Shown here: positions 455-63,150 of the stretch, one piece after another | Position numbering within the stretch: the first letter of the stretch is position 1 | Layout of the letters: the number at the start of each line of letters is the position of its first letter | Assembly (NCBI GenBank): GCA_023038255.1 | Contig: CP082927.1 | Location: 446,146 to 510,145 of the forward strand | From: Candidatus Peribacteria bacterium | GTDB taxonomy: Bacteria > Patescibacteriota > Gracilibacteria > Peribacterales > Peribacteraceae | Length of the DNA stretch: 64,000 bases | Direction of reading: 5' to 3' | Notes under the pieces: model-generated | Told to the model about the DNA's origin: nothing | The model's input: the letters and a program-made list of their open reading frames with translations, nothing else | Database searches by the model: none | Made by a program: the position numbers and the translations under genes

Positions 455-482
455 TTCGAAATCCGAAGCACGAAATCCGAAA
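455..482 (-). repeat. heptad array (minus strand TTTCGGA-TTTCGTG-CTTCGGA-TTTCGAA)
   Basis: CGAA recurs at 457, 464, 471 and 478, exactly 7 nt apart. The array lies 12-39 nt upstream of the small ORF start at 443. Confidence 0.75.
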
Positions 483-2841: not shown

Positions 2842-3734
2842 GACAGGAAGGAGAACCCACCCGGGTTCAGCTGGATAATGAAATTCACAATGGTGTAACT
2901 GGTGAGCATGATAATCAGTCCGATGACCGTTCCGAAAATAGTTTTCTTCGCTTTGTCTTTCAGTCCTTCATCAGTCGATACCACCAGGAAGAGTCCCGCG
3001 ACGATGAATGTCAGCACGGAGAGTCCGCCAATAAGGACAATCAGGAAGTTGGCAATACCGATCATCTGTACCGCAAGATCAGACGATCCGCCTGAACCAG
3101 GCAGGAAGTCCGAGACCACCGTTGTCGCAAGCGTGATGATGGCGACGCCAATAAGCGTGTGGAAGAAACGCTGCTTCTGTTTTTCAATTTCCGAATCCTG
3201 ACCCTGCAGAATAATCAGGCGGATACCCTGATACACCACGACCGCAGTCAATGCTGTTCCGACCATCACGCGCATAAAGAAGACAATAACATGCAGCGTG
3301 TCGCCCACCACGGCAGGGCTCACAAGCACGCCGGAGTTATCTGTTCCGTATGTTCCAAACGGCTGACCGACAGCCTGCACAATGAGAGTCGCAAGCGTCA
3401 CAATGGCAGCACCTGCAATACCATAGGTGTAGGCACTCTTCACTTCTGAAATCGTACTTTCATCCGAACTTTCCATCATCAGACGGATGCCGTACTGGGT
3501 GAAGAGGAGAATGGCTGCTGCAGAAAAAACCAGACGCGCACCGTTGAAGAGCGTGGTTTCTACATACATTGCCGCGCCCAGTGAACCGCCACCCGGACAG
3601 TAAAGCGACGTGATGAAACACACAGTACTGAGATTCACCGATGTTGCGACCGGTTCCACTGCCAGAAACCCGGTTTCCGGAAGCAGTATTCCAACCAAGC
3701 CGGTGAGGAGAGCGAGTGGACGGAGAATGCGCAT
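2838..3734 (-). CDS. paralogous membrane protein with three T4SS-pilin-like helix-loop-helix modules
   Basis: The track ORF runs to 3773 but begins with TTG inside the predicted promoter. ATG at 3734 gives MRILRPLALLTGLVGILL... The modules end in ...AGLFLVVSTDEGLKDKAKKTIFGTVIGLIIMLTSYTIVNFII, parallel to the C-terminus of the neighbouring gene. Confidence 0.6.
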   Translation of the reverse strand: MRILRPLALLTGLVGILLPETGFLAVEPVATSVNLSTVCFITSLYCPGGGSLGAAMYVETTLFNGARLVFSAAAILLFTQYGIRLMMESSDESTISEVKSAYTYGIAGAAIVTLATLIVQAVGQPFGTYGTDNSGVLVSPAVVGDTLHVIVFFMRVMVGTALTAVVVYQGIRLIILQGQDSEIEKQKQRFFHTLIGVAIITLATTVVSDFLPGSGGSSDLAVQMIGIANFLIVLIGGLSVLTFIVAGLFLVVSTDEGLKDKAKKTIFGTVIGLIIMLTSYTIVNFIIQLNPGGFSFLS

Positions 3735-3744
3735 AAATCCATTA

Positions 3745-3773
3745 ATTATAGCAGAAACAGCGTTTTGGCGCAA
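3745..3773 (-). promoter_or_regulatory. promoter of the pilin-like gene pair
   Basis: The minus strand reads TTGCGC-N17-TATAAT with a TGc extended -10 (TGCTATAAT). The -10 ends 10 nt before ATG 3734. Confidence 0.5.
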
Positions 3774-3843
3774 TTTGTACTTTTAGATCATACGATGCTC
3801 TATATGCCGTTAAAATCAGGTTTCAGCCACAAATAATCCACCA

Positions 3844-3878
3844 TTTCCTAGAAGCTGAAAGCAAAAAGCTATAAGCTA
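3844..3878 (-). repeat. 35-nt heptad element, copy 1 (minus strand TAGCTTA-TAGCTTT-TTGCTTT-CAGCTTC-TAGGAAA)
   Basis: Period-7 NAG-CTTY units. It ends 6 nt before the BI-1 start codon on the opposite strand. Confidence 0.8.
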
Positions 3879-3883
3879 TCCTC

Positions 3884-4573
3884 ATGCAACAATTCTCCAC
3901 ATCCTCCTCACGTCCCATCGTCTTTTCAAGCGGCGCAGAAGCGCAGGTCTATTTTCTCTTTGCTATAGCCATGGGATTGACCGCTCTGGGTACATTGATC
4001 GGCATACAGACGTTCCAGTACCTCTCATCCCCACTGCTGATTACCTGTGTCATTGTGGAATTGCTGATTATTTTGACAGCATCCATGTGGACCTACATGC
4101 AGCCCTTGAAATATATCCTGTTTGCTGTTTTTCCGTTCCTGTCCGGTTTCACGTTTACGCCGTATATCATGAGTATTCTGGCGAATTACGTGAATGGAGG
4201 ATCTATCCTTCTGAATGCATGCATCAGCACTGCCCTCATGGCGATGGCATCTGCCGTCTTTGCAAAAACGACAGCGGTGAATTTGTCCGGATTCGGGCGT
4301 TTTCTCTTCTTTGCAGTGCTCGGATTGCTGTCTTTCGGCATCCTGCAGATCTTCTTCCCGGGCCTGCGGACTCCGCAGCTGGAAATGCTTCTCTCAGGTG
4401 CGGGAATTCTCGTGTTTGCGGGCTTTACGGCCTATGACCTGCAACGCATCCAGACGATGTCCCGGCATGGCCAAAACCCCTTTTTGCTGGCCATAAATCT
4501 CTATCTCGACATTTTCAACCTGTTTCTTTATATCGTCCGGTTTATGCTGGCCATTTCCGGAGACAGGCGATAA
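3884..4573 (+). CDS. Bax inhibitor-1/YccA family integral membrane protein
   Basis: 229 aa, about 7 TM helices. C-terminal FAGFTAYDLQRI...LAINLYLDIFNLFLYIVRF is typical of the BI-1/YccA (UPF0005) family. Confidence 0.8.
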   Translation: MQQFSTSSSRPIVFSSGAEAQVYFLFAIAMGLTALGTLIGIQTFQYLSSPLLITCVIVELLIILTASMWTYMQPLKYILFAVFPFLSGFTFTPYIMSILANYVNGGSILLNACISTALMAMASAVFAKTTAVNLSGFGRFLFFAVLGLLSFGILQIFFPGLRTPQLEMLLSGAGILVFAGFTAYDLQRIQTMSRHGQNPFLLAINLYLDIFNLFLYIVRFMLAISGDRR

Positions 4574-4661: not shown

Positions 4662-4847
4662 ATGTCAAAGCGTCCTACACCCAAGAAAAAGAGAGCCAAG
4701 CGCGCAACCCGCATGCAGCACTCTCATTACATCTCTCTGGAGGTGGCACGTTTGCGTGAGCGTCAGAATTCGCCGTATAACACCCCTGCAGAACCGAAGA
4801 ACGCAGGAGACAAGGCTCTCAAGAGCATTACAAGAATCAAGGCCTAA
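4662..4847 (+). CDS. rpmF: probable 50S ribosomal protein bL32 (no zinc-ribbon cysteines)
   Basis: The N-terminus MSKRPTPKKKRAKRATRMQHSHY matches the bL32 signature M-[AS]-K-x-P-x-PKKK-x-SK-x-x-R-x-x-x-SH-[HY]. The C-terminal half is divergent and has no Cys. Confidence 0.5.
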   Translation: MSKRPTPKKKRAKRATRMQHSHYISLEVARLRERQNSPYNTPAEPKNAGDKALKSITRIKA

Positions 4848-5290: not shown

Positions 5291-5331
5291 TTAGACTTCA
5301 AGGTTTTCGTTTTCAGTTCTATACTCGGCAC

Positions 5332-6042
5332 ATGCAACCGTCCTCAAACACCAACGCCACCTCCAATTTTCTCGCACTCGAAAAGACGATCGATTTCCAT
5401 TTCCGGAATCGTGAACTTCTGGTACAGGCTCTCACACACCGCAGCTCTGTCCGCGAAAGCAAACGGAGCGGCCACAACGAACGCCTGGAATTTTTGGGAG
5501 ATGCGGTGTTGGAACTTGCTGCAACTGAGTATCTGTACCACCTCTCCGAGAAGCCCGAAGGTGAATTGACCAACTGGCGCTCCGCACTCGTGCAGCGTGA
5601 ACACCTCGCAGCCGTGGCCCGCGACATCCAGCTCGGCGTACAGCTCATGCTCAGTCGTGGGGAGGAAGCAAGCGGCGGCCGCGACAGAACGTCGACACTT
5701 GCGAACGCTCTGGAAGCGCTTATTGGAGCCATTTATCTCGATAAGGGCTTTGAGGCTGCGAAGCAATTCTGCTTCACATTTATTCTCCGCAGACTCGAAG
5801 GACTTCTGGCAGCCGGCAAAGACCGTGACGAAAAGAGCGTGTTCCAGGAACGTGCTCAGGAAAAATTCGGCATCACCCCGCACTACGAAACCATCGATGC
5901 GGTTGGCCCGGACCACAACAAAGATTTCACCTGCGCGGTATTCATTGGGGAAGAGAAAGTGGCGGAAGGAAAAGGAAATAGCAAGCAACGGGCGGAGCAG
6001 GCGGCGGCGAAGGCGGGGCTGAAGGCGAAGGGGTGGAAGTAA
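5332..6042 (+). CDS. rnc: ribonuclease III
   Basis: 236 aa. RNase III signature NERLEFLGDAVLEL, EALIGAIYLD, and a C-terminal dsRBD (...GPDHNKDFTCAVFIGEEKVAEGKGNSKQRAEQAAA). Confidence 0.92.
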   Translation: MQPSSNTNATSNFLALEKTIDFHFRNRELLVQALTHRSSVRESKRSGHNERLEFLGDAVLELAATEYLYHLSEKPEGELTNWRSALVQREHLAAVARDIQLGVQLMLSRGEEASGGRDRTSTLANALEALIGAIYLDKGFEAAKQFCFTFILRRLEGLLAAGKDRDEKSVFQERAQEKFGITPHYETIDAVGPDHNKDFTCAVFIGEEKVAEGKGNSKQRAEQAAAKAGLKAKGWK

Positions 6043-6056
6043 GATCTTATTTTTAG

Positions 6057-6431
6057 CTAAACCAAAACTTCCTCTCCCCCAGAGCGGGAGAGGAGCGAGG
6101 AGAGGGTTGCTTGCTGAATACAATCCAACACTCTTTCTAAATCATCAAAAACTTCCTGATTAGTAAATCTCAAAACAGTGAACTTCTGTGCTACTAAATA
6201 TTCTTCTCGTAATCGGTCATACTTCTGCTGATATTTATGGATTTCTCCATCAACTTCAATAATAAGCCGTGCTTCAAAGCAGATAAAATCAACGATGAAG
6301 TGGTCTATAGAGACTTGTCGTCTAAATTTATAACCCATTATTTTCTTGCGGCGCAATTGAGTCCAGAGCCGAGCCTCTGCAGATGTTTGCTTTCGCCGAA
6401 GGCGTTTTGCGAATTCGGTGTTTCTTACCAT
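6057..6431 (-). CDS. DUF559 (Vsr-like) endonuclease domain protein
   Basis: 124 aa. ARLWTQLRRKKIMGYKFRRQVSIDHFIVDFICFEARLIIEVDGEIH...FTVLRFTNQEV is the canonical DUF559 pattern. Confidence 0.85.
   Translation of the reverse strand: MVRNTEFAKRLRRKQTSAEARLWTQLRRKKIMGYKFRRQVSIDHFIVDFICFEARLIIEVDGEIHKYQQKYDRLREEYLVAQKFTVLRFTNQEVFDDLERVLDCIQQATLSSLLSRSGGEEVLV
6071..6093. repeat. palindrome CCTCTCCC-N7-GGGAGAGG at the 3-prime end of the DUF559 gene
   Basis: 8-bp stem within the last codons of the CDS. It is related to the palindrome at 6457-6479. Confidence 0.75.
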
Positions 6432-6456
6432 AAGCGGGTATTCTCCTTCTCCCTAA

Positions 6457-6479
6457 CCCTCTCCCGCAAGGGGAGAGGG
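6457..6479. repeat. palindrome CCCTCTCCC-N5-GGGAGAGGG upstream of the DUF559 gene
   Basis: 9-bp stem located 26-48 nt upstream of the DUF559 start codon. Confidence 0.75.
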
Positions 6480-6492
6480 GACGGTCGTACAC

Positions 6493-6912
6493 TTAATAAA
6501 CCTTTTGCTTATATTTATGGTATTTCTCAATCGTCGCCTTCACCGGCTCAAACAAATTCTTTGGCAAACTGTCCAAAGAAACCCACATCCATTTCTCCCA
6601 ATCCTCAGAAGGCTTGTCCAGATTCAGTGCACCATTCACAGCTGCGAGGCACCCAATGCCTATATAATGATTTCCGAAGGCAAAATTTTCATGCACACCG
6701 AGAATGGTCATCGATGTTAGTTTTGCATCAAAAAGATCTTGAAGATTGCGCATGACTGCAGCCTCAATCGTTTCTTGAAATCGGATATCATCACCAGGGA
6801 GGCCATATAATTTCTCCTTTCCCTGAAGCCATTTTTCTGAGGGCATCCCCAGAAGGACTTGTTCATCTTTAATAATCAGGACATCAGTATTCACATGAGG
6901 AAATTTGTCCAT
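6493..6912 (-). CDS. Nudix-fold protein with a degenerate Nudix box
   Basis: 139 aa. The segment GLPGDDIRFQETIEAAVMRNLQDLFD aligns to the Nudix box, but REUxEE is replaced by RNLQDL. This is a fold-level call only. Confidence 0.4.
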   Translation of the reverse strand: MDKFPHVNTDVLIIKDEQVLLGMPSEKWLQGKEKLYGLPGDDIRFQETIEAAVMRNLQDLFDAKLTSMTILGVHENFAFGNHYIGIGCLAAVNGALNLDKPSEDWEKWMWVSLDSLPKNLFEPVKATIEKYHKYKQKVY

Positions 6913-6948
6913 ATCCTAAAAGTCGAAACCTAGAAGCTAAAAGCTCAT
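6912..6948 (-). repeat. 35-nt heptad element, copy 2 (minus strand ATGAGCTTT-TAGCTTC-TAGGTTT-CGACTTT-TAGGAT)
   Basis: It fills the whole rpsJ-Nudix spacer and abuts the Nudix ATG. About 29 of 36 positions are identical to the copy at 55580-55615. Confidence 0.85.
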
Positions 6949-7362
6949 TTACCCCTTCATCTTAATCTCAATATCCACACCGCTCGGCAGGGACAGAGAC
7001 TGGAGGGCTTCAACTGTCTTGAAGGTTGTTTCGGTCAAATCGATCAAACGGCGGTGTGTACGCATTTCGTACTGGTCGCGGGCGTTCTTGTGGACGAATG
7101 TCGACTTGTTGAGGGTGAATTTGCGGATGTTGGTCGGCAGTGGAATCGGGCCATGCACAATGGCACCGCTGCGCACTGCAGTATCGATAATCTTGGCTGC
7201 TGCTTCATCCAGGACACGGTGGTCGAAGGCGCTCAGACGGATGCGGATACCAGAAATACCGTCAGCCTTCTTTTTGGAGGGCTTTTCCGCCGGCTCTGCT
7301 GCTTTGGAGGCTTTCTTGGGAGAAGCCTTTTTTTCGAGGTCCTTGGGGGTTTTTGCAGTCAT
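6949..7362 (-). CDS. rpsJ: 30S ribosomal protein S10 with a Lys-rich N-terminal extension of about 35 aa
   Basis: Core IRIRLSAFDHRVLDEAAAKIIDTAVRSGAIVHGPIPLPT...RTHRRLIDL...LSLPSGVDIEIK. At 137 aa it is longer than the usual length of about 102 aa. Confidence 0.92.
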   Translation of the reverse strand: MTAKTPKDLEKKASPKKASKAAEPAEKPSKKKADGISGIRIRLSAFDHRVLDEAAAKIIDTAVRSGAIVHGPIPLPTNIRKFTLNKSTFVHKNARDQYEMRTHRRLIDLTETTFKTVEALQSLSLPSGVDIEIKMKG

Positions 7363-7404
7363 AGCCTAGAGGAGAAAGAACAGGGATGGGGGTAAAAAGG
7401 GTTT

Positions 7405-7434
7405 TTTGAGGGGCGCAAGATAGCGCCCCTCAAA
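7405..7434 (-). other. 12-bp GC-rich stem-loop in the tuf-rpsJ spacer
   Basis: TTTGAGGGGCGC-aagata-GCGCCCCTCAAA. On the transcribed (minus) strand it is followed by AAAAACCCTTTTT, so it is not a canonical terminator. Confidence 0.6.
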
Positions 7435-7447
7435 CCCATTTGCAAGC

Positions 7448-11770: not shown

Positions 11771-12751
11771 ATGAATAAAGAGGAGCGCATCGCCGGATTT
11801 GTGGAGGAGATCTGGGCGTGGTACATGCGGCATAAGCGCATTCTCCCATGGCGCGATCTCGCAATCGCCGACGACACGCAGCGTGCGTACATGGTTCTTG
11901 TCTCCGAAATCATGCTGCAGCAAACACAGGTGCCGCGCGTTATGATTATCTTCAAGCGCTTTCTCGATGAATTCCCCACTGTTGCTGCTCTCGCTCAGGC
12001 CTCAAACAAAGAGGTGATCCTGGCGTGGAAGGGGATGGGCTACAACTCGCGCGCCCTGCGTCTTCGCGATGCGGCAAACATTATCATCGACGAACATCAG
12101 GGGATATTTCCCAAAGAGATGGATCAGCTGTTATCGATCAAAGGAATCGGTCCCTACACAGCCGCCGCCATCCGCAACTTCGCATTCAACATCCCGACGC
12201 CGTGCATCGACACAAATATCCGCCGCATTCTGCACCGTACGTTTGTCGGACCAGAAAGTGATGAAGGAACATGGGACATGAATGATCGCGCGTTGCTGAA
12301 AATTGCCGCAGAGGTACTGGATCACGCTGTGCAGACAGTGCCCGCCGGACTCAAGGGTGCTGCCGATTGGCATGCTGCCCTCATGGACTTTGGCTCGCTT
12401 GTGCAGACAAAATCGAATCCCAAGTGGGACATCTGTCCGCTCACAGAAAAAAACCTGATGAAAGCAACGCCAAAGAACTTTCCTGAAAGCCGAAAGCTGA
12501 AAGCCAAAAGCTCATCCAAAGAGCCCGGCCGCATGATGGGTGCCACCTATATTCCGAACCGCATCTTCCGCGGTCGCATTGTCGATGCGTTGCGCGAGCA
12601 TCATCAGGGTCTTGATTTCGATCTGATCGGTCAGGAAATCTGCACGGACTGGACTGATGAACATCATCTGTGGCTTGAGCAACTTCTCCTGAAACTCAAA
12701 GCGGACGGCCTGATTGCCGTCCGCAAGGATCGCTATGTGCTGGGGGATTAA
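11771..12751 (+). CDS. mutY: MutY-like HhH-GPD adenine DNA glycosylase lacking three of four Fe-S cysteines, with a short C-terminal domain
   Basis: LPWRD, catalytic VSEIMLQQTQV, HhH LLSIKGIGPYTAAAI, catalytic Asp in IDTNIRRIL. The cluster loop reads QTKSNPKWDICPLTEKN where CTRSKPKCSLCPLQNGC is expected. Confidence 0.8.
   Translation: MNKEERIAGFVEEIWAWYMRHKRILPWRDLAIADDTQRAYMVLVSEIMLQQTQVPRVMIIFKRFLDEFPTVAALAQASNKEVILAWKGMGYNSRALRLRDAANIIIDEHQGIFPKEMDQLLSIKGIGPYTAAAIRNFAFNIPTPCIDTNIRRILHRTFVGPESDEGTWDMNDRALLKIAAEVLDHAVQTVPAGLKGAADWHAALMDFGSLVQTKSNPKWDICPLTEKNLMKATPKNFPESRKLKAKSSSKEPGRMMGATYIPNRIFRGRIVDALREHHQGLDFDLIGQEICTDWTDEHHLWLEQLLLKLKADGLIAVRKDRYVLGD
12481..12515 (-). repeat. 35-nt heptad element, copy 3, inside the mutY-like CDS (minus strand ATGAGCTTT-TGGCTTT-CAGCTTT-CGGCTTT-CAGGA)
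   Basis: On the plus strand it reads TGAAAGC-CGAAAGC-TGAAAGC-CAAAAGC-TCAT, in frame, encoding ESRKLKAKSSS. Confidence 0.8.
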
Positions 12752-25325: not shown

Positions 25326-25354
25326 TTCCGCAAGAAGGCGTTTTTTGGTATACT
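25326..25354 (+). promoter_or_regulatory. promoter of gene C, near-leaderless
   Basis: TTCCGC-N17-TATACT with a TGG extended -10. It ends 10 nt before ATG 25365. Confidence 0.45.
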
Positions 25355-25364
25355 ATTAAGATTT

Positions 25365-28225: not shown

Positions 28226-30616
28226 ATGATCTACACACTCTTCCAGACAGGCTTCAACAATCCTCTTCGCGAGAAGCGGTTGATGTATAATGCTATTGGC
28301 GGCACCCCGAATGAAGGCCCTACCTATAGCACTGTTGCGGCTCGGCTTCTGGATTATCCTGATCACCAGGATTTCCTGACATGGGTACAGGACAGGCCTG
28401 GCAGAATGGTGGAAGGTGTGACATGGATGACCGGCAGTGTTGCTGCATGGCTCGCAAAAGAAATCATCCAAATTCCTGCAGGTCTTCTGCGCGGCATTAA
28501 AGCTGTGTGGGAACAGGAAACAAATAATGAAGAAATGCTCTCGCTCATTGGGCAGACTGCGGCCTTTTTCCGCGATGTGCCCACTCTGGGTGATGATCTC
28601 GGACGCTTTATTGAATTGAAAGCACTCGATAAGCAGCAGATGTTCAATATGGTGAGCCATGAACTCTGGGTCGACGCATTTGCAACTGAGAATATTTTCG
28701 ATGAACCCCAGACTCCTGTTGATCCGGCTAACACCGGTGTAAAACCTGCAGACTTTCTTTTAAGTCTTGATCCTGAAGAGCGTAAGAAAGTGTACTTTGA
28801 ATATGTTGATACATTCATTCCGACCAATTTACAGGGAGATGCGAAGCCGATTGTAAAAGACGAAGATGCATCCCGTCGTTTTATCAGACTGAAGAATGAG
28901 CAAAAAGATACATTTAACGGTGCGCTCGGTGCGATTCTCGGTATTGATAAATGGCAGAATTTAAAAGGAAACGTGAATGCGAATGAATCAAAAACTCTCG
29001 CAGAAAAAAGTCTGACGCAGCATTACCGTACAAATAAGTCTGACTTTGCACGCATGTCCAATAACGGACTGGTGAACGACCTCAACGATGCGAAGCAATT
29101 TGCAAAGTTTGGCGGACATACATTCGATCTCGACAATCCCAAAGAGATTGCGCGCTATATGGCCCCCAGCCGCCTGAAGGGAATGCTGACGCAGAATGTT
29201 CTGAGTAAAGAAAACTTCAGAAAACTTGCCGGTGGAATCCAGGAAATTGAGTATCTCGAACGTCTTGCCATTGGAAAGACTGAGCAGAATCTCAGCGTTC
29301 TGACCAAGGCCACCAAGCAGTCGCTCAAAAAAGAAGCGAACACACTAATGGATACGTGGAATAATCTGAATGGTGTCGAGACTGTGCTTCTGTGTGCAGG
29401 TCTTGCGTATCTTTTGTACAAGAGTGATACGGCAAAAACAGTCGGTTTGGGCCTGGCAGGAGCATACTTTGTGCAGAAATTTGGCTTCCGCCAGGATGAT
29501 CCCATTGCAGTCTGGAGCAGTTTTTTGAATTCTTCTGTCGATGCAGGTTCAGAGCTTGGAAAGTCTGCAATCGGCGACCCCGCATCGTTGAAAGGAACAT
29601 CAGAACTCCGTCATCGTGCGGAGATCTACGTGAACTTATTGAGTCCGCACGATCGTGATCATATGGACAAGGAATCTGTCGCGTTGGCTCTCATGCATGA
29701 AATTGAATTACCACTTCTTGCTGAGGCCTTTGTGATGAACGGACAGGAGGGTCATAAGTGGGAGATGAACATCAAGCCCGGCAGTCCGCTCGATCTTCAG
29801 CTTGCAGAAGTAATGGCGAAGCGCGGCTGGAGCAAGGACTATCGCACGTATTTCAAAGATCCGAAAAATGTGAAGTACCTGACGCAGGCAATGGGTCTCG
29901 TGTTCTACAAAATTGCGAAGGATAGTCACGACGGAACAGACAAAGACGTCGCCGCCGTCGAAAATGTCTGGAACAAAATGCCCGCCGGTGCAGGACTTCC
30001 GTATCTCCCGAGTCCGTTTACGACTGTGAACTACAAGCCGTACAACATGATGAATGAGGATCCGGATCTGCATCTGGAAATGCTGACCGCTCAGCAGATT
30101 TACATGCGCCTTGTTGCACAGGGTCGCGGAATTGCAGGAACGATGGGCAACGAAACGCTGGGTCACTACGTGTATCACAACATGCTGACACATCAGAAAG
30201 ATCAGGAAATGAGAAATCGCTACAAGACGCCGTATCAGACGAATCGTGCGGGAGGTGCTGCACCAACAACTCCAAACGCTGGAAACCAGGCACCGGGAAT
30301 TCCTCAGGCAGGAAACAATGCTCCATCCAATACTCCTGGTGCCGGTAATCAGGCCCCGGGAAATCCAAATCCAGCAAAGAACCAGGTCCCGGGAAATCCA
30401 AATCCAGGCAACCAGCCTCAGGGAAATCCAAATCCAGCAAAGAACCAGGCACCCGGAAATCCAAATCCAGGCAACCAGCCTCAGGGAAATCCGAACCCGG
30501 GGAACCAGGCCTCTGTTGGCCCGGGTCCAGGCAACCAGCCTCAGGGAAATCCTGATCCAGCAAAAAACCAGGCACCCGGAAATCCTGGTCCTGCAAAAGC
30601 ACCTCCTGCTAAATAA
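28226..30616 (+). CDS. orphan protein D (796 aa) with an internal hydrophobic hairpin and a tandem-repeat Asn/Pro/Gln-rich C-terminus
   Basis: Starts 5 nt after the stop of C. Hairpin VETVLLCAGLAYLLYKSDTAKTVGLGLAGAYFVQKFGF. The C-terminus carries 21-aa repeats GNPNPAKNQAPGNPNPGNQPQ. Confidence 0.75.
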   Translation: MIYTLFQTGFNNPLREKRLMYNAIGGTPNEGPTYSTVAARLLDYPDHQDFLTWVQDRPGRMVEGVTWMTGSVAAWLAKEIIQIPAGLLRGIKAVWEQETNNEEMLSLIGQTAAFFRDVPTLGDDLGRFIELKALDKQQMFNMVSHELWVDAFATENIFDEPQTPVDPANTGVKPADFLLSLDPEERKKVYFEYVDTFIPTNLQGDAKPIVKDEDASRRFIRLKNEQKDTFNGALGAILGIDKWQNLKGNVNANESKTLAEKSLTQHYRTNKSDFARMSNNGLVNDLNDAKQFAKFGGHTFDLDNPKEIARYMAPSRLKGMLTQNVLSKENFRKLAGGIQEIEYLERLAIGKTEQNLSVLTKATKQSLKKEANTLMDTWNNLNGVETVLLCAGLAYLLYKSDTAKTVGLGLAGAYFVQKFGFRQDDPIAVWSSFLNSSVDAGSELGKSAIGDPASLKGTSELRHRAEIYVNLLSPHDRDHMDKESVALALMHEIELPLLAEAFVMNGQEGHKWEMNIKPGSPLDLQLAEVMAKRGWSKDYRTYFKDPKNVKYLTQAMGLVFYKIAKDSHDGTDKDVAAVENVWNKMPAGAGLPYLPSPFTTVNYKPYNMMNEDPDLHLEMLTAQQIYMRLVAQGRGIAGTMGNETLGHYVYHNMLTHQKDQEMRNRYKTPYQTNRAGGAAPTTPNAGNQAPGIPQAGNNAPSNTPGAGNQAPGNPNPAKNQVPGNPNPGNQPQGNPNPAKNQAPGNPNPGNQPQGNPNPGNQASVGPGPGNQPQGNPDPAKNQAPGNPGPAKAPPAK
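30358..30600 (+). repeat. 63-nt tandem repeat (about 3.7 copies) inside gene D
   Basis: Units at 30358-30420 and 30421-30483 are nearly identical, and the next two are degenerate. Each unit encodes GNPNPAKNQ(V/A)PGNPNPGNQPQ. Confidence 0.85.
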
Positions 30617-31458: not shown

Positions 31459-31487
31459 TTGCTCAATTTCGGGAAATTTGCTATAAT
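31459..31487 (+). promoter_or_regulatory. promoter of cassette F-G
   Basis: TTGCTC-N17-TATAAT (TGCTATAAT), 18 nt before ATG 31506. Confidence 0.55.
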
Positions 31488-31505
31488 AATGAGAAAACCT
31501 GACAT

Positions 31506-53886: not shown

Positions 53887-53922
53887 TCCCCATAACCCAT
53901 AACTCATCACCCGTAACCCATC
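53887..53922 (+). repeat. heptad array filling the rpsL-rpsG spacer (CATAACC-CATAACT-CATCACC-CGTAACC-CATC)
   Basis: The whole 36-nt intercistronic spacer is 4.5 degenerate 7-nt units that end at the rpsG ATG. Confidence 0.8.
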
Positions 53923-55571: not shown

Positions 55572-55616
55572 CAGCTTTTATGAGCTTTTAGCTTATAGAT
55601 GTTAGCTTTTAGGAAT
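55572..55616 (+). repeat. 35-nt heptad element, copy 4, in the fusA leader (GAGCTTT-TAGCTTA-TAGATGT-TAGCTTT-TAGGAAT)
   Basis: Five in-phase (G/T)AG-N4 units, plus one out-of-phase CAGCTTT. Confidence 0.85.
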
Positions 55617-55624
55617 TACTCTCA

Positions 55625-55659
55625 TTCCTAATTCCTAACTCCTAATTCCTCACTCCCAA
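55625..55659 (+). repeat. heptad array TTCCTAA-TTCCTAA-CTCCTAA-TTCCTCA-CTCCCAA directly upstream of the fusA ATG
   Basis: Five 7-nt units. The reverse complement of the unit is TTAGGAA. TTAGGAAT (55609-55616) and ATTCCTAA (55624-55631) can form an 8-bp hairpin. Confidence 0.85.
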
Positions 55660-55663
55660 TCCC

Positions 55664-57826: not shown

Positions 57827-58098
57827 ATTGACAGATATAAAAAATGTTTCTCATTTTCCCTCTTCTGTCTGGGGAAGTTGTACGTAAATGCTCAAATAGA
57901 GAGATGTTTTTTCTGTACAGGAAAGCCCTTTTACTCATTTTTCTCCGGCAAATATCATTGTACCCTCCCTTCATATTTTGCATAGAAAACTATACAGACA
58001 CTGCTTCAAAACAATAAATAGTGCGGTTTTATTTGCTTTTAGGGTTTTATTTGCGTAGCATGCCGAATTGTATTGCTATCCTTCCCACCTTTCTCCTT

Positions 58099-61000
58099 AT
58101 GGAAAGATTTATCAAGCACGCCAAGCGGAGCATCTCAACATTCTCGCTGGCGGCTCTTTCGCTAAATATTTTACTCGGATCTGCGGTAGCAGCTTTGCCG
58201 GTTTTTTCGCCACAGGCAAATGCCGTAGGCACAACCCTGCTGGCCACTGCAGTCGGAAATTACGATCAATGGAGTGCGAGTGCGGGAAGCAAGGTTGCTG
58301 CTGTGGGCACGAATGATGCTGTTTTTATCAGTGAGGCGACAAATACAGAGAGGCAGAGCTTCACATTTGCATCTGCAGGCATTCCCACTGGCGCCCTTGT
58401 TAGCTCCGTCGTCTTGAATGTTCTTGCAAAGGAAACAGGAGGAAGCAGTGCGTCTATGAAATTATTTGCAGAAGACGGGCTTACAGCCGGAGATCGCGAT
58501 GTCGGAAGTACGAACAATCTGACAAGCAGCTATGTAAACTACACGAAAACCTGGAATGAAAATCCCTTTACGAACAATGACTGGACTGCAGCGGAGGTGA
58601 ATACATGGACAGTGAACTTTGGTGTCGAAAAAAGTTCGGCCAATGCGGATGTTGCCAATGTGACCTACATGGAACTGGTCGTGAATTACACAGTTCCAAC
58701 CTGTAATGCACTGAGTGCTACCATTTCGGGTTCGGGAATTATCAACGGTACTGCCGGTGATGATGTGATTGTTGGTTCCAGCGGTGTGGATACCATCACA
58801 GGAAACGGGGGAAATGACACGATCTGTGCGCTGGGGGGGAACGATTCTGTCACAACAGGAAACGGTAATGACTGGATTGATACAGGTGACGGCACAAACA
58901 CTGTTGTTGCCAACGGAGGGAATAACACAGTATTTGGCGGAAGCGGTAACGATAACATTACAACTGGAAACGGTAATGACACTATTGATGCGGGAGATGG
59001 AAGCAATGTAATTGTGGCAGGTGCGGGTGTGAATATGATCGACTCAGGAAACGGTAACGATACCATCACTACTGGAAATGATAACGACACCATTGTTGCC
59101 GGAGACGGAAGCAATGTGATTAATGCGGGCTCTGGCACAAACTCTGTCACAACCGGCAACGGTAATGACAGCATTACGACTGGAAACAACGATGACACAA
59201 TCGTCGCAGGTGCCGGTAGTAATACAATCGTCGCAGGTGCCGGTGTGAACTCTGTTACAACCGGTAATGGCAATGACGATATTACGACTGGAAACAATGA
59301 CGACACTATCATTGCAGGAGATGGAAGTAATGTGATTGACGCGGGATCGGGTGAAAATACCGTGACCACTGGAAACGGAAACGACGATGTCACCACTGGA
59401 AACGGAAACGATACTATCGTTCTTGGGAATGGGACGAACGGCACAGCTGGTGATCGTATTCAATCAGGTGCAGGAAATGACTCGATCACAGGTGGGTCCG
59501 GTAATGATCACTTCGATGGCGGAGATGGTATGGACTATTGTGATCCTGTCGGAACAGGGGGAAATAATACAACAATCAACTGTGAAGCCGTGGGCGATCA
59601 GGCACTCGTCACTATTGTCAAAGATGCACAGCCGGATACTGCGGATGACTTCCTCTTTACAGGCGATATCGGTGCATTTGCACTCGATGACGACGCCGAC
59701 GGAACACTCCCGAACAGCACAACTGTCACGATGGCTGCCACAGTGGGCGGCACGGTCCGCTCAATCACGGAATCTGTGGCTACAGGTTGGCAACTCCAGA
59801 GCATTACCTGTACTCCGGATGCCGGAACATCAGGAAATGTCGGTTCTCAGACAGCAACAGTTCTTTTGAATAAAGGAGATCATATCACTTGTACATTCGT
59901 GAACACTCCTGCTCCTGTTACGACAGTCAGAGTGACAATCGCTAAATATATGAACGGCGTTCATGCAACCGCTGGTAACACAGACAATGCATCGTTCAAT
60001 ATGACCGCTGTGTACAACGCATCCAACATCGGATCGGGTTCCGATCCTTATGTCATCAGTGCAACCGGAAACGGTACGCCTGAGGCATACGAAGCACAGA
60101 CGATTGCACTCGCATCCGGTGCGGACTACAGCACTTACGAAACCATCAGTGCGCCATGTACCGATGCAACACCGTTTGAATTGGTTGGATATTCCACAGG
60201 AGATTCTTTGGCAGCTGCCGAGGCAGCGCCTGTCAGCATGACAGTGCCCGCTTTCACGGGGCTGACATCTGATAAGTTTGTGATTGTCTGGAATGAAACC
60301 TGTCCTCCGGTCCCGACGCATCTGACACCGGCAGACGGCAGCACGCTGACAACCGCACAGCTCGACAAGATCGACTGGAGCGATGTGGCAACGCCTGCAT
60401 TGCCGATGACGTATTTCTACGAAGTGGCAACGACAGATACGAGCACCAATCCTGATGGGTCCTTCGTGAACCCGGTGTATGAATCTGCAGCACTGTCCGA
60501 CTCCGAAATTGTGACAGCAGGTACAGGAGATGGAACCTACCACTGGCATGTCCGCGCCGTTGACGCTGCAGGAAACAGCAGTGCATGGTCGGCACCTTGG
60601 ACGGTGACAGTCAGCAACGCCGCAGTGGATACCACGCCGCCGGTCGTCGAGATTCTCGGGTACCGCAATCAGACAAGTGGAACCTATGATAGCGGTCCTG
60701 CTATCCAGGCCTGTGGCACCACTACCGCCTCTTCCTTCATCGCCTTTGAGTGGCAGGAGGTTGGCACCGATGTGTCTCAGCCGTTGAGCTACGAATACAA
60801 GATTCTCAGCGGTCCAGCCGGTGTTGGATACACACAGGTACACTCTGGCACACACCACAACGGCGGTATTCCTGCAGAAGGAACGTATACCATCCAGATC
60901 ACCCCGACCGATGCAGCATCGAATGTCGGAACACCTGTTACCTGCACCATGACCTATGATGCAGACTATGTGGCCCCTGTTGCCTGTAATGTGTCTGATA

Positions 61001-63150
61001 TTGATCTGATTGCACACTGGAAGCTCGACGAAGCTGCCAGTGCAACCGTCGCAGAAGATGCAACTGCCAATAACAATGATGGTGCAGTGATGAGTGCGAC
61101 GTCCGCTGCAACTCCTGCAACAACACCGGTGTTTATCAATACAGGGTCCTACGACTTCGATGGTGTGAACGACAGTATCGATATGGGAAGCAACGTCGGC
61201 AACTTCACCGTGGCTGACTCCTTCTCCATTTCCGCCTGGATTAACCCCGCTCTCGACTTCCAGAATCATGCCATTTACGGAAATACCTGGAGCAGCCCGG
61301 GATACCTGCTGCGCGTGACGGATCAGAATAAGATCCGATTTATTCTTGCGGAGAACGGCAGCGTCTACGAAGGCATGGATTCCGGTGTGCTCACTCCGGG
61401 ATGGCACCATGTGACCGGTGTCTGGGACGGTGCGAACGTGAAAGTGTACGTTGATGGAGTGGATGCATCCATGACCTCCATTGCAAACGGGACAGTCTCA
61501 ACCATCACCACATCCGCACATACGTTTATCGGACAGACCGGACAGATCGGTTCTGCACACTACTTTGACGGTATGATCGACGACGTCCGCGTCTACGGTG
61601 ATGTCCTGAGCGAGAGTGAAATCGCAGCTCTTGCTGCCGGACAGTGCCAGGGCGGAACACCGACACCAGCTTCTTCCTCGTCATCTTCCTCCGTGGCAGC
61701 TTCCTCTGAAGCTGCATCATCTGAAGGGCAGGGCAGCAGTGCACAGTCCAGCACTCCTGAAATCGTCGCTTGTACCACAACCGCTTTGGCAGGGTACTGG
61801 CCGATGAACGAAGGCGAAGGCACAACAGCATTTGATATGACCGGTCTCGGCCACGACGGAACGCTCCAGGGCGGAACCGCCTGGGCATCCGGTGCAAACG
61901 CTATCACGCCAAATCCGTTCGGTCTCGACTTCGATGGCTCTGATGACATTGTGAACATTACGAGCAGCAACGACTTCAACTACGGAACACAGGAATTCAC
62001 CGTCAGCACCTTTGTCCGCACCACAACGGGTAACCGTTCCATCCTCGGAAACTTCAGCGCCGGATTCAAGGGTTGGGGACTCTACGTCTACAACACGAAC
62101 CAGGTGAACTTCTTCGGATACGGTTCCATGGGTAACAACGATGCCGCAAAGCCGGCCATTGTTCTCGACGGTAACTGGCACAACCTGACAGGTGTGTACC
62201 GCCGTTCCGGAAACGATCTGACCATTGATACCTACGTCGATGGTGTCCTGGTTGGTTCCAACACCGCTGCTGTCGGAGATATCTCTGCAAACAGCACTCT
62301 CTACTTCGGACAGTATCTGCCACAGCCGTCATTGGATGGCGGACTGGATGACGTCCGTATTTACGGCCGCGCGTTGAGCGCCGGTGAGGTCGCGGCTATT
62401 GCCGGCGGATGCAGCAATCCTGTCATCGCATCCTCCAGCTCCAGCTCTTCAAGCTCTGCATCAGAAGGGGAAAGCAGCAGTGAGTCTGTTGAGTCATTCC
62501 AGTCATTCGGTCTCTCCACACCGGAGGTTGAACCGGGTAACGGTGCTTTCCGCGGTAGCAGAACAAACATCCTCGCGGGTGTGATCAACTTCATCAAGGG
62601 TAAGATCAATATCACTGCTCCGGGTAGCTTTGGTGGTGTCGCACCGGGTGGATTCGGAGGTGCATCGGATCTTCCGTATACAATCGAAGAGAAAAACCTG
62701 ATCTGTACCATGAAGCGTGCTATCCCGACAGATGCGAAACTCGCTATCTGGGAATGGGTCGCGTCCACTCTCTCCGAGCAGATCAATCATTCTGCAGACG
62801 ATATTCTGGAAAGCCTGAAGGATTCCACCTTCTGTGACTACCAGGCAACCGCCAAGACGAAGGTTGCAGCCGCTGCAAAGCCGCTGCCATTCCTCGTGAG
62901 CGCTGCAGGATTCCCGCTTTCCGACAACCCGACATGGAACGCGTGTGTCACGGGTAAGGTGACACTCCAGGACATCCGCAATAACCCCGACAAAGACAAG
63001 CACGGACGCGGCCTCAGTTGTGCCACGTACCACACGGGAAACATGTGGACACACCCGGATCTGAAGATCTTCTTCACTTGGAACAGCAAGACGAAGAAAA
63101 TCACGCTTCCGGAAGGATTCGCTATTGAGAAGCAGGAAGTCACGCTCTAA
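58099..63150 (+). CDS. giant secreted protein with an RTX-type nonapeptide beta-roll array, a prealbumin-like domain, two LamG/ConA-like lectin domains and poly-Ser linkers
   Basis: ATG 58099 gives MERFIKHAKRSISTFSLAALSLNILLGSAVAALPVFSPQANA (signal). The track start is GTG 58021. About 25 units of G-x-G-x-[DN]-x-[IV]-x-x are present. There are two LamG domains (LIAHWKLDE...FDGMIDDVRVYG and LAGYWPMNEG...LDGGLDDVRIYG). Confidence 0.85.
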   Translation: MERFIKHAKRSISTFSLAALSLNILLGSAVAALPVFSPQANAVGTTLLATAVGNYDQWSASAGSKVAAVGTNDAVFISEATNTERQSFTFASAGIPTGALVSSVVLNVLAKETGGSSASMKLFAEDGLTAGDRDVGSTNNLTSSYVNYTKTWNENPFTNNDWTAAEVNTWTVNFGVEKSSANADVANVTYMELVVNYTVPTCNALSATISGSGIINGTAGDDVIVGSSGVDTITGNGGNDTICALGGNDSVTTGNGNDWIDTGDGTNTVVANGGNNTVFGGSGNDNITTGNGNDTIDAGDGSNVIVAGAGVNMIDSGNGNDTITTGNDNDTIVAGDGSNVINAGSGTNSVTTGNGNDSITTGNNDDTIVAGAGSNTIVAGAGVNSVTTGNGNDDITTGNNDDTIIAGDGSNVIDAGSGENTVTTGNGNDDVTTGNGNDTIVLGNGTNGTAGDRIQSGAGNDSITGGSGNDHFDGGDGMDYCDPVGTGGNNTTINCEAVGDQALVTIVKDAQPDTADDFLFTGDIGAFALDDDADGTLPNSTTVTMAATVGGTVRSITESVATGWQLQSITCTPDAGTSGNVGSQTATVLLNKGDHITCTFVNTPAPVTTVRVTIAKYMNGVHATAGNTDNASFNMTAVYNASNIGSGSDPYVISATGNGTPEAYEAQTIALASGADYSTYETISAPCTDATPFELVGYSTGDSLAAAEAAPVSMTVPAFTGLTSDKFVIVWNETCPPVPTHLTPADGSTLTTAQLDKIDWSDVATPALPMTYFYEVATTDTSTNPDGSFVNPVYESAALSDSEIVTAGTGDGTYHWHVRAVDAAGNSSAWSAPWTVTVSNAAVDTTPPVVEILGYRNQTSGTYDSGPAIQACGTTTASSFIAFEWQEVGTDVSQPLSYEYKILSGPAGVGYTQVHSGTHHNGGIPAEGTYTIQITPTDAASNVGTPVTCTMTYDADYVAPVACNVSDIDLIAHWKLDEAASATVAEDATANNNDGAVMSATSAATPATTPVFINTGSYDFDGVNDSIDMGSNVGNFTVADSFSISAWINPALDFQNHAIYGNTWSSPGYLLRVTDQNKIRFILAENGSVYEGMDSGVLTPGWHHVTGVWDGANVKVYVDGVDASMTSIANGTVSTITTSAHTFIGQTGQIGSAHYFDGMIDDVRVYGDVLSESEIAALAAGQCQGGTPTPASSSSSSSVAASSEAASSEGQGSSAQSSTPEIVACTTTALAGYWPMNEGEGTTAFDMTGLGHDGTLQGGTAWASGANAITPNPFGLDFDGSDDIVNITSSNDFNYGTQEFTVSTFVRTTTGNRSILGNFSAGFKGWGLYVYNTNQVNFFGYGSMGNNDAAKPAIVLDGNWHNLTGVYRRSGNDLTIDTYVDGVLVGSNTAAVGDISANSTLYFGQYLPQPSLDGGLDDVRIYGRALSAGEVAAIAGGCSNPVIASSSSSSSSSASEGESSSESVESFQSFGLSTPEVEPGNGAFRGSRTNILAGVINFIKGKINITAPGSFGGVAPGGFGGASDLPYTIEEKNLICTMKRAIPTDAKLAIWEWVASTLSEQINHSADDILESLKDSTFCDYQATAKTKVAAAAKPLPFLVSAAGFPLSDNPTWNACVTGKVTLQDIRNNPDKDKHGRGLSCATYHTGNMWTHPDLKIFFTWNSKTKKITLPEGFAIEKQEVTL
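58747..59535 (+). repeat. 27-nt (nonapeptide) coding repeat array inside the giant gene
   Basis: About 25 consecutive G-x-G-x-[DN]-x-[IV]-x-x units (GNGNDTIDA GDGSNVIVA GAGVNMIDS ...). Confidence 0.85.

Follow-up and report, generated by a model that had tools for sequence, protein, structure and literature searches.

Vertically inherited five-unit heptanucleotide arrays in spacers, leaders and a protein linker of a Peregrinibacteria genome

Introduction

What are the short, phased repeats that adjoin rpsJ, fusA and several other genes of a small bacterial genome from the Candidate Phyla Radiation (CPR), and what holds them in place? The stretch of DNA that raises this question, hereafter the window, comprises 64,000 nucleotides of the Candidatus Peribacteria bacterium contig CP082927.1 (positions 446,146 to 510,145), and coordinates given below without a contig name refer to it. 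An earlier note on this DNA had recognised a dispersed family of about 35-nt elements, each made of five 7-nt units and present in four copies, and had proposed that they are either binding sites for a ring-shaped or oligomeric nucleic-acid-binding protein, with TRAP as the example, or a miniature mobile or REP-like (repetitive extragenic palindromic) family. The operators of TRAP and HutP consist of phased UAG or GAG triplets bound by ring-shaped oligomers, and HutP binds UAG-N4-UAG-N4-UAG, a register with a 7-nt period. Heptanucleotide repeats near bacterial gene starts have also been described since about 1990, in the form of the cyanobacterial STRR (short tandemly repeated repetitive) sequences.

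The host was placed by means of EF-G. In a set of 185,579 species genomes, the closest counterpart (79% identity) came from a Candidatus Peregrinibacteria metagenome-assembled genome (MAG); closer homologues in a protein collection carry the names Peribacteraceae or Peregrinibacteria. Over the 16.9 kb compared, the window matches part of a Joint Genome Institute (JGI) metagenome contig of 1,248,119 bp at 99.8% identity. The analysis covered these ~64 kb of the genome and the orthologous regions of relatives. As described below, the arrays are vertically inherited, fixed features of the chromosome. They are confined to DNA that tolerates changes of length: spacers between cistrons, 5' leaders, and the disordered loops or linkers of a protein. 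Across relatives in which about half of the silent sites have diverged, position, five-unit length and a common consensus are all retained.

Results

A phased family of heptanucleotide arrays

The four copies have the coordinates and sequences that had been read earlier (Table 1, copies 1 to 4). Their unit has the consensus YAGCTTT, or AAAGCTR on the other strand, and an array comprises about five units, or about 35 bp. When both strands of the window were scored against (NAGCTTT)x5, values of 23-24 out of 30 specified positions were obtained at copies 1 to 4 exactly, compared with a mean best score of 19.05 in 100 dinucleotide-preserving shuffles, which produced 0.04 positions per shuffle at or above 21. 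Similarly, AGCTTTNAGCTTTNAGCTTT with at most three mismatches gave seven matches, all inside copies 1 to 4, against 0.04 expected and a maximum of one in any of the 100 shuffles, and the spaced pattern AGC-N4-AGC-N4-AGC-N4-AGC gave two matches in the window against 0.01 expected. The repeat thus stands far above chance. TRF (Tandem Repeats Finder) independently reported period-7 arrays at 3848-3878, 12485-12511 and 55583-55612, that is at three of the four loci. Copies 1 and 2 are identical at 29/36 positions without gaps, as had been claimed, at 27/35 over the five-unit core and at 31/36 when gaps are allowed.

Seven is the sole enriched period that is not a multiple of three: 19 positions of the window reach the threshold at this period, versus none at periods 4, 5, 8, 10 and 11, and the window together with its relatives holds 17 period-7 arrays versus 2, 0, 0 and 0 for periods 5, 8, 10 and 11. 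Period-14 double units are also seen. Within the unit, AG is the best-kept part, G3 being retained in 20 of the 22 window units and A2 in 18.

The description of a four-copy family was accurate as to the reality and the phasing of the copies; what it missed is that they belong to a wider phenomenon of heptamer arrays with several unit types, in this genome and in many others. A fifth, decayed YAGCTTT locus lies at 5291-5320 and scores 19/30 on (NAGCTTT)x5, and other heptamer units (CCCATAA, ATTCCTA, CGAAATC) fill other spacers of the same window. A further CCCATAA array, in inverse orientation, lies just beyond the window edge (contig L001).

Table 1. Heptanucleotide arrays of the window and unit types found at three sites in relatives
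Array or site	Position	Strand	Sequence or unit	Place or genomes
Copy 1	6913..6948	-	AT-GAGCTTT-TAGCTTC-TAGGTTT-CGACTTT-TAGGAT	
Copy 2	55573..55616	+	CAGCTTT-tat-GAGCTTT-TAGCTTA-TAGATGT-TAGCTTT-TAGGAAT	orf126-fusA spacer
Copy 3	3844..3883	-	(GAGGA)-TAGCTTA-TAGCTTT-TTGCTTT-CAGCTTC-TAGGAAA	
Copy 4	12481..12515	-	AT-GAGCTTT-TGGCTTT-CAGCTTT-CGGCTTT-CAGGA	inside EndoIII/MutY-like open reading frame (ORF)
Copy 5, degenerate	5291..5320	+	T-TAGACTT-CAAGGTT-TTCGTTT-TCAGTTC	most of nusB-rnc spacer
CCCATAA array	53887..53922	+	CCCATAA x5	whole 36-nt rpsL-rpsG spacer; not YAGCTTT family
ATTCCTA array	55624..55660	+	ATTCCTA, ~5 units	between copy 2 and fusA ATG
CGAAATC/CGAAGCA array	457..482	+	CGAAATC/CGAAGCA x4	intergenic, downstream of phosphoglucomutase gene
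EndoIII linker			AAAGCYG	window, L205, L207, L209
EndoIII linker			CCCCTAC-like	L204 (closest homologue)
EndoIII linker			CAGCTCG	L211
EndoIII linker			GAAGCAC and AAAAACH	L212
EndoIII linker			AAAAACT	L213
nusB-rnc spacer			CCCTAGC-type	L207, L213
Just after rpsL stop			TCGTTTW-type, period 7	L124

The copies cluster at gene boundaries, and three of them adjoin the Nudix, BI-1 and fusA genes, as stated in the earlier note. Copy 1, forward in the tuf-rpsJ-Nudix transcript, takes up all 36 nt that separate the rpsJ stop codon (6949-6951) from the Nudix ATG (6910-6912). Copy 2, also forward, begins 56 nt past the stop codon of orf126 and ends 47 nt upstream of the fusA ATG; since it is directly downstream of the extended -10-like sequence TGTAGAGT (this and the other promoter boxes named here are consensus guesses), it would lie in the fusA 5' leader. 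Copy 3 amounts to nearly the entire predicted BI-1 leader, from the -10-like AATAAT (3832-3837) to the ATG at 3884. It ends 5 nt ahead of that ATG, on the opposite strand, and since the + strand reads (AAAGCTN)n it is in reverse orientation in the BI-1 mRNA. Copy 4 is antisense within the EndoIII/MutY-like gene (11771-12751, + strand), at about codons 238-249, where its DNA codes for the linker PESRKLKAKSSS; on the coding strand it has the reverse orientation, which is free of stop codons, and CGA stands where TGA would be in frame. The degenerate copy 5, read forward, begins at the nusB stop codon and ends immediately ahead of a TATACT box, which the rnc ATG (5332) follows. The YAGCTTT copies are thus forward in three mRNAs (rpsJ-Nudix, fusA leader, nusB-rnc) and reverse in two (BI-1 leader, EndoIII ORF). 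Consecutive UAG-N4 units number four in copy 2 and three in copy 1, and such a run also occurs in the nusB-rnc array of the relative L211; copy 4 contains no UAG triplet at all, and in copies 3 and 4 the mRNA strand lacks such a run.

Two features of the family were considered and set aside. The ATGAG and YAGGAA ends shared by several copies are in part coincidence as element boundaries, and orthologues lack them: the CAT complement at copy 3 is the BI-1 start codon and the orthologues of copies 1 and 4 are without ATGAG, so that the common 5' ATGAG is partly fortuitous, and copy 4's part of the shared ends is the coding motif NFPE. TAGGAW does recur in several non-orthologous copies. A restriction-modification or methylation system as the cause of the AGCT core was rejected on the frequency of AGCT, which is neither avoided nor enriched in the window (observed/expected 0.94).

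Conservation of the arrays in relatives

Syntenic contigs of eight relatives were found through homologues of the EndoIII-like protein and of EF-G. After the rpsJ stop codon, L207 and L209 carry a five-unit YAGCTTT array despite lacking both the Nudix and the DUF559 genes. The array of the BI-1 leader is kept with its 7-nt phase in L207 and L209, kept in part in L212 and lost in L211 and L213, and the array of the EndoIII linker is conserved at the DNA level in L205, L207 and L209. The nusB-rnc spacer, degenerate in the window, holds in L211 the clean array TAGCTTT-TAGGTTT-TAGGTGT-TAGCTTT-TAGGATT, whose first TAG is the nusB stop codon. In the fusA leaders of L215 and L220 the same five units stand as far from a conserved -10-like box as they do in the window (14-16 nt), with 26/35 and 24/35 identity; the stretch between array and ATG varies freely in length (17-50 nt) and sequence while the array stays. 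The neighbouring ATTCCTA array is missing from these two leaders, and L124 has a period-6 CCCTAR repeat there.

When the window is compared with L207 or L209, identity is 32-55% at four-fold degenerate positions of ordinary genes and 61-84% in the arrays. Mismatches between orthologous arrays are distributed unevenly over the unit, with 9% at G3 and 46% at N7 (chi-square p ~0.03, computed on non-independent pairs), which agrees with the retention of AG among the window units and bears out the emphasis that had been placed on phased NAG triplets. The number of units is five in nearly every copy and orthologue, and the arrays are identical in the 99.8%-identical strains. Variation in unit number, the trait by which phase-variable contingency simple sequence repeats (SSRs) switch expression, was therefore seen neither between the 99.8%-identical strains nor in diverged relatives, where five units are kept. 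No clean empty site was found in the syntenic relatives: all five sites hold an array, a decayed array or a replaced array. Because the arrays occupy the same places in relatives whose four-fold sites are 32-55% identical, they have been inherited vertically and are constrained or homogenised, not mobile; and because position, length and consensus are kept across relatives with largely randomised silent sites, they are unlike hypermutable microsatellites. L214, a second Peregrinibacteria genome from the same metagenome, has no arrays in 21 kb.

Replacement of one unit by another at the same site

The linker of the EndoIII-like protein is built from different heptamers in different relatives, and the nusB-rnc spacer and the site behind rpsL also carry units of other types (Table 1); the rpsL-rpsG spacer of L220 is C/T-rich. 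Two more variable loops of the EndoIII-like gene carry period-7 arrays in some relatives. Arrays within ORFs are always in the stop-free orientation, and units that would make a stop codon are altered (AGC CGA instead of AGC TGA, TAT instead of TAA). The CGAAATC/CGAAGCA unit types of the window recur in the EndoIII linker of L212 and in an unrelated contig (L048). With regard to the protein itself, the EndoIII/MutY-like glycosylase has a conserved C-terminal extension of ~75 residues (EPGRMMGAKYIPNRIFRGRIVDALRE...) without a Pfam match, and its homologues (P0001-P0120) are 315-394 residues long, with three insertion hot spots that are encoded by period-7 DNA in several relatives.

Heptanucleotide arrays in other genomes

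A scan of metagenomes with ATGAGCTTTTRGCTTNNAG, a sample biased by the pattern itself, returned at least 120 loci, none of them from the source contig among the matches listed. Copy 2 was identical at 33/35 positions to L071 and at 31/35 to L105 and L114 (among the matches listed), compared with 24-26/35 to its own orthologues. In unrelated contigs, again among the matches listed, heptamer arrays fill spacers, many of them having an invariant AGCT core and three variable bases; they often start at the upstream stop codon and sometimes form inverted pairs. In a survey of fusA neighbourhoods of diverse bacteria, 1.32 Mb in total, the arrays cluster in a few lineages, namely Acidobacteriota, Gracilibacteria, Ignavibacteria and Ruminococcus, at a density of 2.5 per 100 kb, versus 8.5 per 100 kb in the Peregrinibacteria relatives.

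Some contigs are particularly rich in such arrays: an Acidobacteriota MAG (L136) has 10 in 23 kb, and two metagenome contigs (L035 and L094) have 9-12 in 12-14 kb at a stricter threshold. The unit types of these three include AGCTNNN, CAGGGAW, AACTGAS and GTCCTAA, and in L035 the arrays often form inverted pairs around a short loop, between co-directional genes. A groundwater contig (L013) contains (CCCTAAA)n beside an AGCT-type array at 3484-3532 and 5466-5508; the identity of CCCTAAA with the plant-type telomere heptamer is probably a coincidence. In a Gracilibacteria MAG (L159, 2523-2625) the fusA leader consists of two adjacent arrays, (AAAAGCA-like)n followed by (TTAATTC/TTTTAAT)n, an arrangement that echoes the fusA leader of the window with different units and with the first array in the opposite orientation.

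RNA structure, terminators and promoters

The folding of the arrays does not depart from that of shuffled sequences (z from -1.0 to +1.3, the G-poor CCCATAA type excepted), and only weak AGCU mini-hairpins are formed. The fusA leader as a whole folds better than shuffles (z = -3.4); RNAalifold applied to three aligned fusA leaders gave no compensatory pairs, a positive covariation term and no conserved fold. The window contains no match to an Rfam family and no tRNA. Scans and folds revealed no terminator-like hairpin with U-tract at copies 1, 2 or 3; the sole match of the terminator scan near a copy is weak, lies on the - strand and overlaps the start of copy 4 within the EndoIII ORF. A role as terminator or promoter was rejected, the consensus scans giving nothing consistent at the arrays. 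The proximity of nusB and rpsJ makes a comparison with BoxA, the NusB/NusE site, suggestive (GCTTTTTAG against GCTCTTTA); this candidate too was dropped, the likeness being weak and the tandem 7-nt layout a misfit. Finally, a strand test for stop triplets in intergenic units (48/61 sense, 42/61 antisense) was discarded as circular, since 'intergenic' is defined by the absence of ORFs.

Neighbouring genes and translation starts

Throughout the window gene starts are not preceded by a GGAGG-like Shine-Dalgarno (SD) motif (for example upstream of 4892, 6949, 7448, 53449, 53923 and 55664). The 15-20 nt before the ATG are C/U-rich (cttcaccccaccATG, ctttctcctctaggctATG, cactcccaatcccATG) and resemble the anti-SD sequence rather than complementing it. 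TATAAT-like or extended -10 boxes lie only ~10-25 nt before some start codons, as in tttgctataataatgag..ATG, ggtattatagggag..ATG and tgctataattaatggatttATG (25340-25364, 31475-31505, 35425-35456, 43745-43779 and, on the - strand, 3735-3760), which suggests that the corresponding mRNAs may be very short-leadered or leaderless.

The genes of the str operon are split: rpsL, rpsG, two ORFs and fusA occupy 53.4-57.8 kb on the + strand, and tuf and rpsJ occupy 8.6-6.9 kb on the - strand, rpsJ not being followed by rplC. The tuf-rpsJ spacer (7363-7447, - strand) contains a G+C-rich hairpin, GAGGGGCGC-tatctt-GCGCCCCTC, then a C-rich leader, without an Rfam match. The hairpin is kept in L207, L209, L211, L212 and L214, with pairing-preserving changes in the stem (GAGGGGGGC/GCCCCCCTC), the stem of L214 being a different one; it could represent an attenuator or a leader of the S10 type. 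Downstream of rpsJ, between it and a terminator-like hairpin, are the Nudix gene and an endonuclease-like DUF559 gene (6057-6912, - strand); the two are missing there in L207 (4416-4802), L209 (4773-5146), L211, L212 and L213, and Nudix is present in L214. The interval between BI-1 and nusB holds a 61-residue ORF without a Pfam match (4662-4847, + strand), found at the same place and with the same length in L209, L211 and L213. Long in-frame tandem repeats unrelated to the heptamers occur at 30350-30598 (33/63-nt units, ORF 28226-30616) and, as 108-nt units, at 58938-59421 in a 1709-residue ORF (58021-63150).

Discussion

The arrays are very probably a Peregrinibacteria (CPR) representative of the class of heptanucleotide direct repeats to which the STRRs, the TAACTGA repeats and the heptanucleotide LSSRs (long simple sequence repeats) belong. 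This assignment follows from three properties: they are head-to-tail repeats of 7 nt, the unit recurs at unlinked loci beside other units, and they are mostly intergenic, near starts and stops. The explanation that I prefer, to which I would give a probability of about 45%, combines membership in this class with an origin by slippage and a weak function in cis. Units of 7 bp and 14 bp, duplicated locally or multiplied by slippage, would have given rise to the arrays, and an array of one unit would occasionally be replaced at the same site by an array of another. In the leaders and spacers of this SD-less lineage they would then act as weakly constrained cis elements: in forward orientation an array would place a stop codon in all three frames right behind the upstream ORF, and single-stranded nucleic acid with such an array would present some five AG-centred sites in phase. 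These sites would most likely be read not by a dedicated ring-shaped regulator but by a general protein that binds single strands with ~7 nt as its footprint, one of the cold-shock-domain or S1 type; once bound, it would modulate initiation of translation, coupling or processing at the neighbouring gene. Taken separately, this functional part is a tentative proposal, less likely than not.

Several observations weigh against the combined explanation. Three forward and two reverse copies are a poor fit to a strand-specific function in RNA, and a constant length of five units is not what simple slippage would be expected to give. Paralogues are as similar as orthologues, and the copies stay around one consensus; intra-array or ectopic homogenisation could mimic selection in this way. 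Since good alignment is to be expected of any two arrays with a common unit, the conservation may also look greater than it is. Nor is a role in keeping leaders free of structure supported, since the arrays are not less structured than shuffles and the fusA leader has a z of -3.4.

The most serious rival holds that the arrays are neutral by-products, slipped-strand duplications of 7 bp that survive wherever insertions are tolerated and owe their conservation to shared descent and homogenisation. Doubtful as it is when taken as the whole account, it is nearly as likely as the functional reading. The EndoIII-like gene, with in-ORF arrays in three of its variable loops or linkers, speaks for it, as do different unit types at the same site in different relatives, mixed orientation, period-14 double units and paralogues no less alike than orthologues; heptanucleotides are, moreover, the most abundant LSSRs in most surveyed genomes and have been attributed to slippage (as relayed in PMC4679880). 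It accounts less readily for the unit number of five across relatives and the identity of the arrays in 99.8%-identical strains, for conservation above both four-fold sites and the adjoining leader sequence, for substitutions that avoid the AG core, and for a single consensus at unlinked sites and in other genomes.

At the other end of the functional spectrum, the five-unit arrays might be true operators of an unrecognised nucleic-acid-binding protein, or of a conserved housekeeping one, for instance of the cold-shock-domain or S1 type, whose protomers or domains read AG(C) every 7 nt. This I regard as unlikely. If it were true, a post-transcriptional circuit would extend over fusA, rpsJ/nusE and nusB-rnc in an SD-less CPR lineage, the consensus would be held genome-wide by co-evolution with the protein, and a first mechanistic handle on bacterial heptamer repeats would be at hand.

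A more specific version, with a dedicated oligomeric regulator whose protomers read (U/C)AG or AGC(U) every 7 nt and whose regulon includes fusA, rpsJ/nusE and nusB-rnc, is decidedly unlikely. It draws on the strict phasing with AG as the most conserved core, on the UAG-N4 runs of copies 1 and 2, on the presence of five units in nearly all copies and orthologues, and on copies that remain near one consensus though orthologues have diverged; in unrelated contigs (among the matches listed) the AGCT core is invariant and the other three bases vary, and the palindromic AGCU core would be present in either orientation. Phased (U/G)AG triplets are common to the HutP and TRAP operators and to the arrays, HutP being the closer analogue in that copies 1 and 2 and the nusB-rnc array of L211 are in the UAG-N4 register. 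The arrays differ from both in having no terminator or antiterminator context, mixed mRNA orientation, one copy inside an ORF and site-wise replacement of the unit, and it is mixed orientation, the in-ORF copy, unit replacement and the lack of a conserved fold that argue against strand-specific TRAP/HutP operators and against REP elements alike. The TRAP-like interpretation of the earlier note is therefore not supported for a family of which copy 4 contains no UAG and whose sites are occupied in relatives by unrelated units, such as the CCCCTAC type in the EndoIII linker of L204 and the CCCTAGC type in the nusB-rnc spacer of L207; there is also neither an overlapping terminator/antiterminator alternative nor covariation. 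A gene for an oligomeric RNA-binding protein, which that note had proposed to look for, did not turn up: no HutP (PF09021), TRAP (PF02081) or CsrA domain was matched among the 30 window proteins scanned, a weak test in that the window is ~5% of the genome.

A role in double-stranded DNA, be it that a transcription factor or nucleoid protein binds the arrays or that they form a structural element of promoters, is very improbable. Orientation independence would be natural at the DNA level, and the core AGCT is a palindrome; copies 2 and 3 stand directly downstream of -10-like boxes and the nusB-rnc copy directly upstream of TATACT. These boxes are, however, guesses from consensus, no promoter context is obvious for copy 1 or for the copy within an ORF, AGCT occurs at 0.94 of its expectation, and contiguous units of 7 bp do not keep step with the turn of the DNA helix. 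We know of no binding mode for contiguous double-stranded sites with a 7-bp period; the heptameric repeats of SARP-type regulators recur every 11 bp.

Spread by transposition or recombination as a miniature mobile, REP or MITE-like (miniature inverted-repeat transposable element) family is hardly credible: near-identical 33-36-nt versions at unrelated loci and contigs (copy 2 and L071 above, among the matches listed), an in-frame copy within a gene, reminiscent of the Rickettsia palindromic elements, and the same unit types at non-homologous sites of different genomes are set against the orthologous position of every copy that can be examined in relatives, the absence of terminal inverted repeats or arms, REP hairpin and target-site duplications, and the fact that the search pattern had already dictated 17 of the first 19 bases of the matches in other contigs.

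What is new here is the occurrence of heptamer arrays in a CPR/Patescibacteria lineage (full-text searches of a library of papers found none that links heptanucleotide repeats to CPR), the comparative evidence that short five-unit arrays keep position, length and consensus, and the construction of variable loops and a linker of an EndoIII-like glycosylase from arrays whose unit types swap at one site. Small genomes (~1-1.25 Mb) and the apparently array-poor sister L214 make this a compact comparative system in which to look for the process or protein that underlies heptamer repeats. If the arrays are neutral, they are a modest curiosity of CPR genome texture and a caution for gene callers.

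Among known heptamer repeats, the broadest comparison is with the LSSRs, of which heptanucleotides are the commonest prokaryotic kind in most surveyed genomes according to Mrazek et al. 2007, who proposed polymerase slippage (as relayed in PMC4679880). From what PMC4679880 relays of them, LSSRs share with the arrays a scattered phylogenetic distribution, which here takes in Acidobacteriota, Gracilibacteria, Ignavibacteria and Ruminococcus and not most taxa. The present arrays differ in being short, imperfect and stable in unit number, not hypermutable.

The cyanobacterial STRRs are heptanucleotide sequences reportedly described by Mazel et al. in 1990. They and the heptamers of Nostoc resemble the arrays as dispersed tandem families with several unit types per genome, located near promoters and starts; they differ in their units (for example CCCCAGT, TTTTGAA and GACYAAT), in arrays that are often longer and more perfect, and in the large size of the genomes, and a relationship by descent is not implied. 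The contiguous heptamers of Nostoc are located no more than 100 bases from a start or a -10 box, and reporter output changes when they are deleted (bioRxiv 10.1101/2022.06.06.494920).

The closest description is that of the TAACTGA repeats of marine Beggiatoaceae and of some Cyanobacteria and Bacteroidetes, which occur in sets of 2-6 units, mostly intergenic and mostly forward, and whose function was left open (MacGregor 2015, PMC4679880). The likeness extends to tandem 7-nt direct repeats that are mostly intergenic, to a location a few nt from a downstream start codon or overlapping an upstream stop codon, to a position upstream of fusA and ribosomal-protein genes, to forward copies that give stops in all three frames and reverse copies in ORFs at the periphery of proteins, and to the rarity of SD sites at the genes concerned (PMC4679880). 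The Peregrinibacteria arrays are set apart by the unit YAGCTTT, its imperfect repetition and a CPR host with a ~1.2-Mb genome, and by three forward and two reverse copies where the TAACTGA sets are mostly forward; orthologous conservation, a constant number of five units and replacement of the unit at the same site have been demonstrated for the arrays described here and were not for the TAACTGA repeats.

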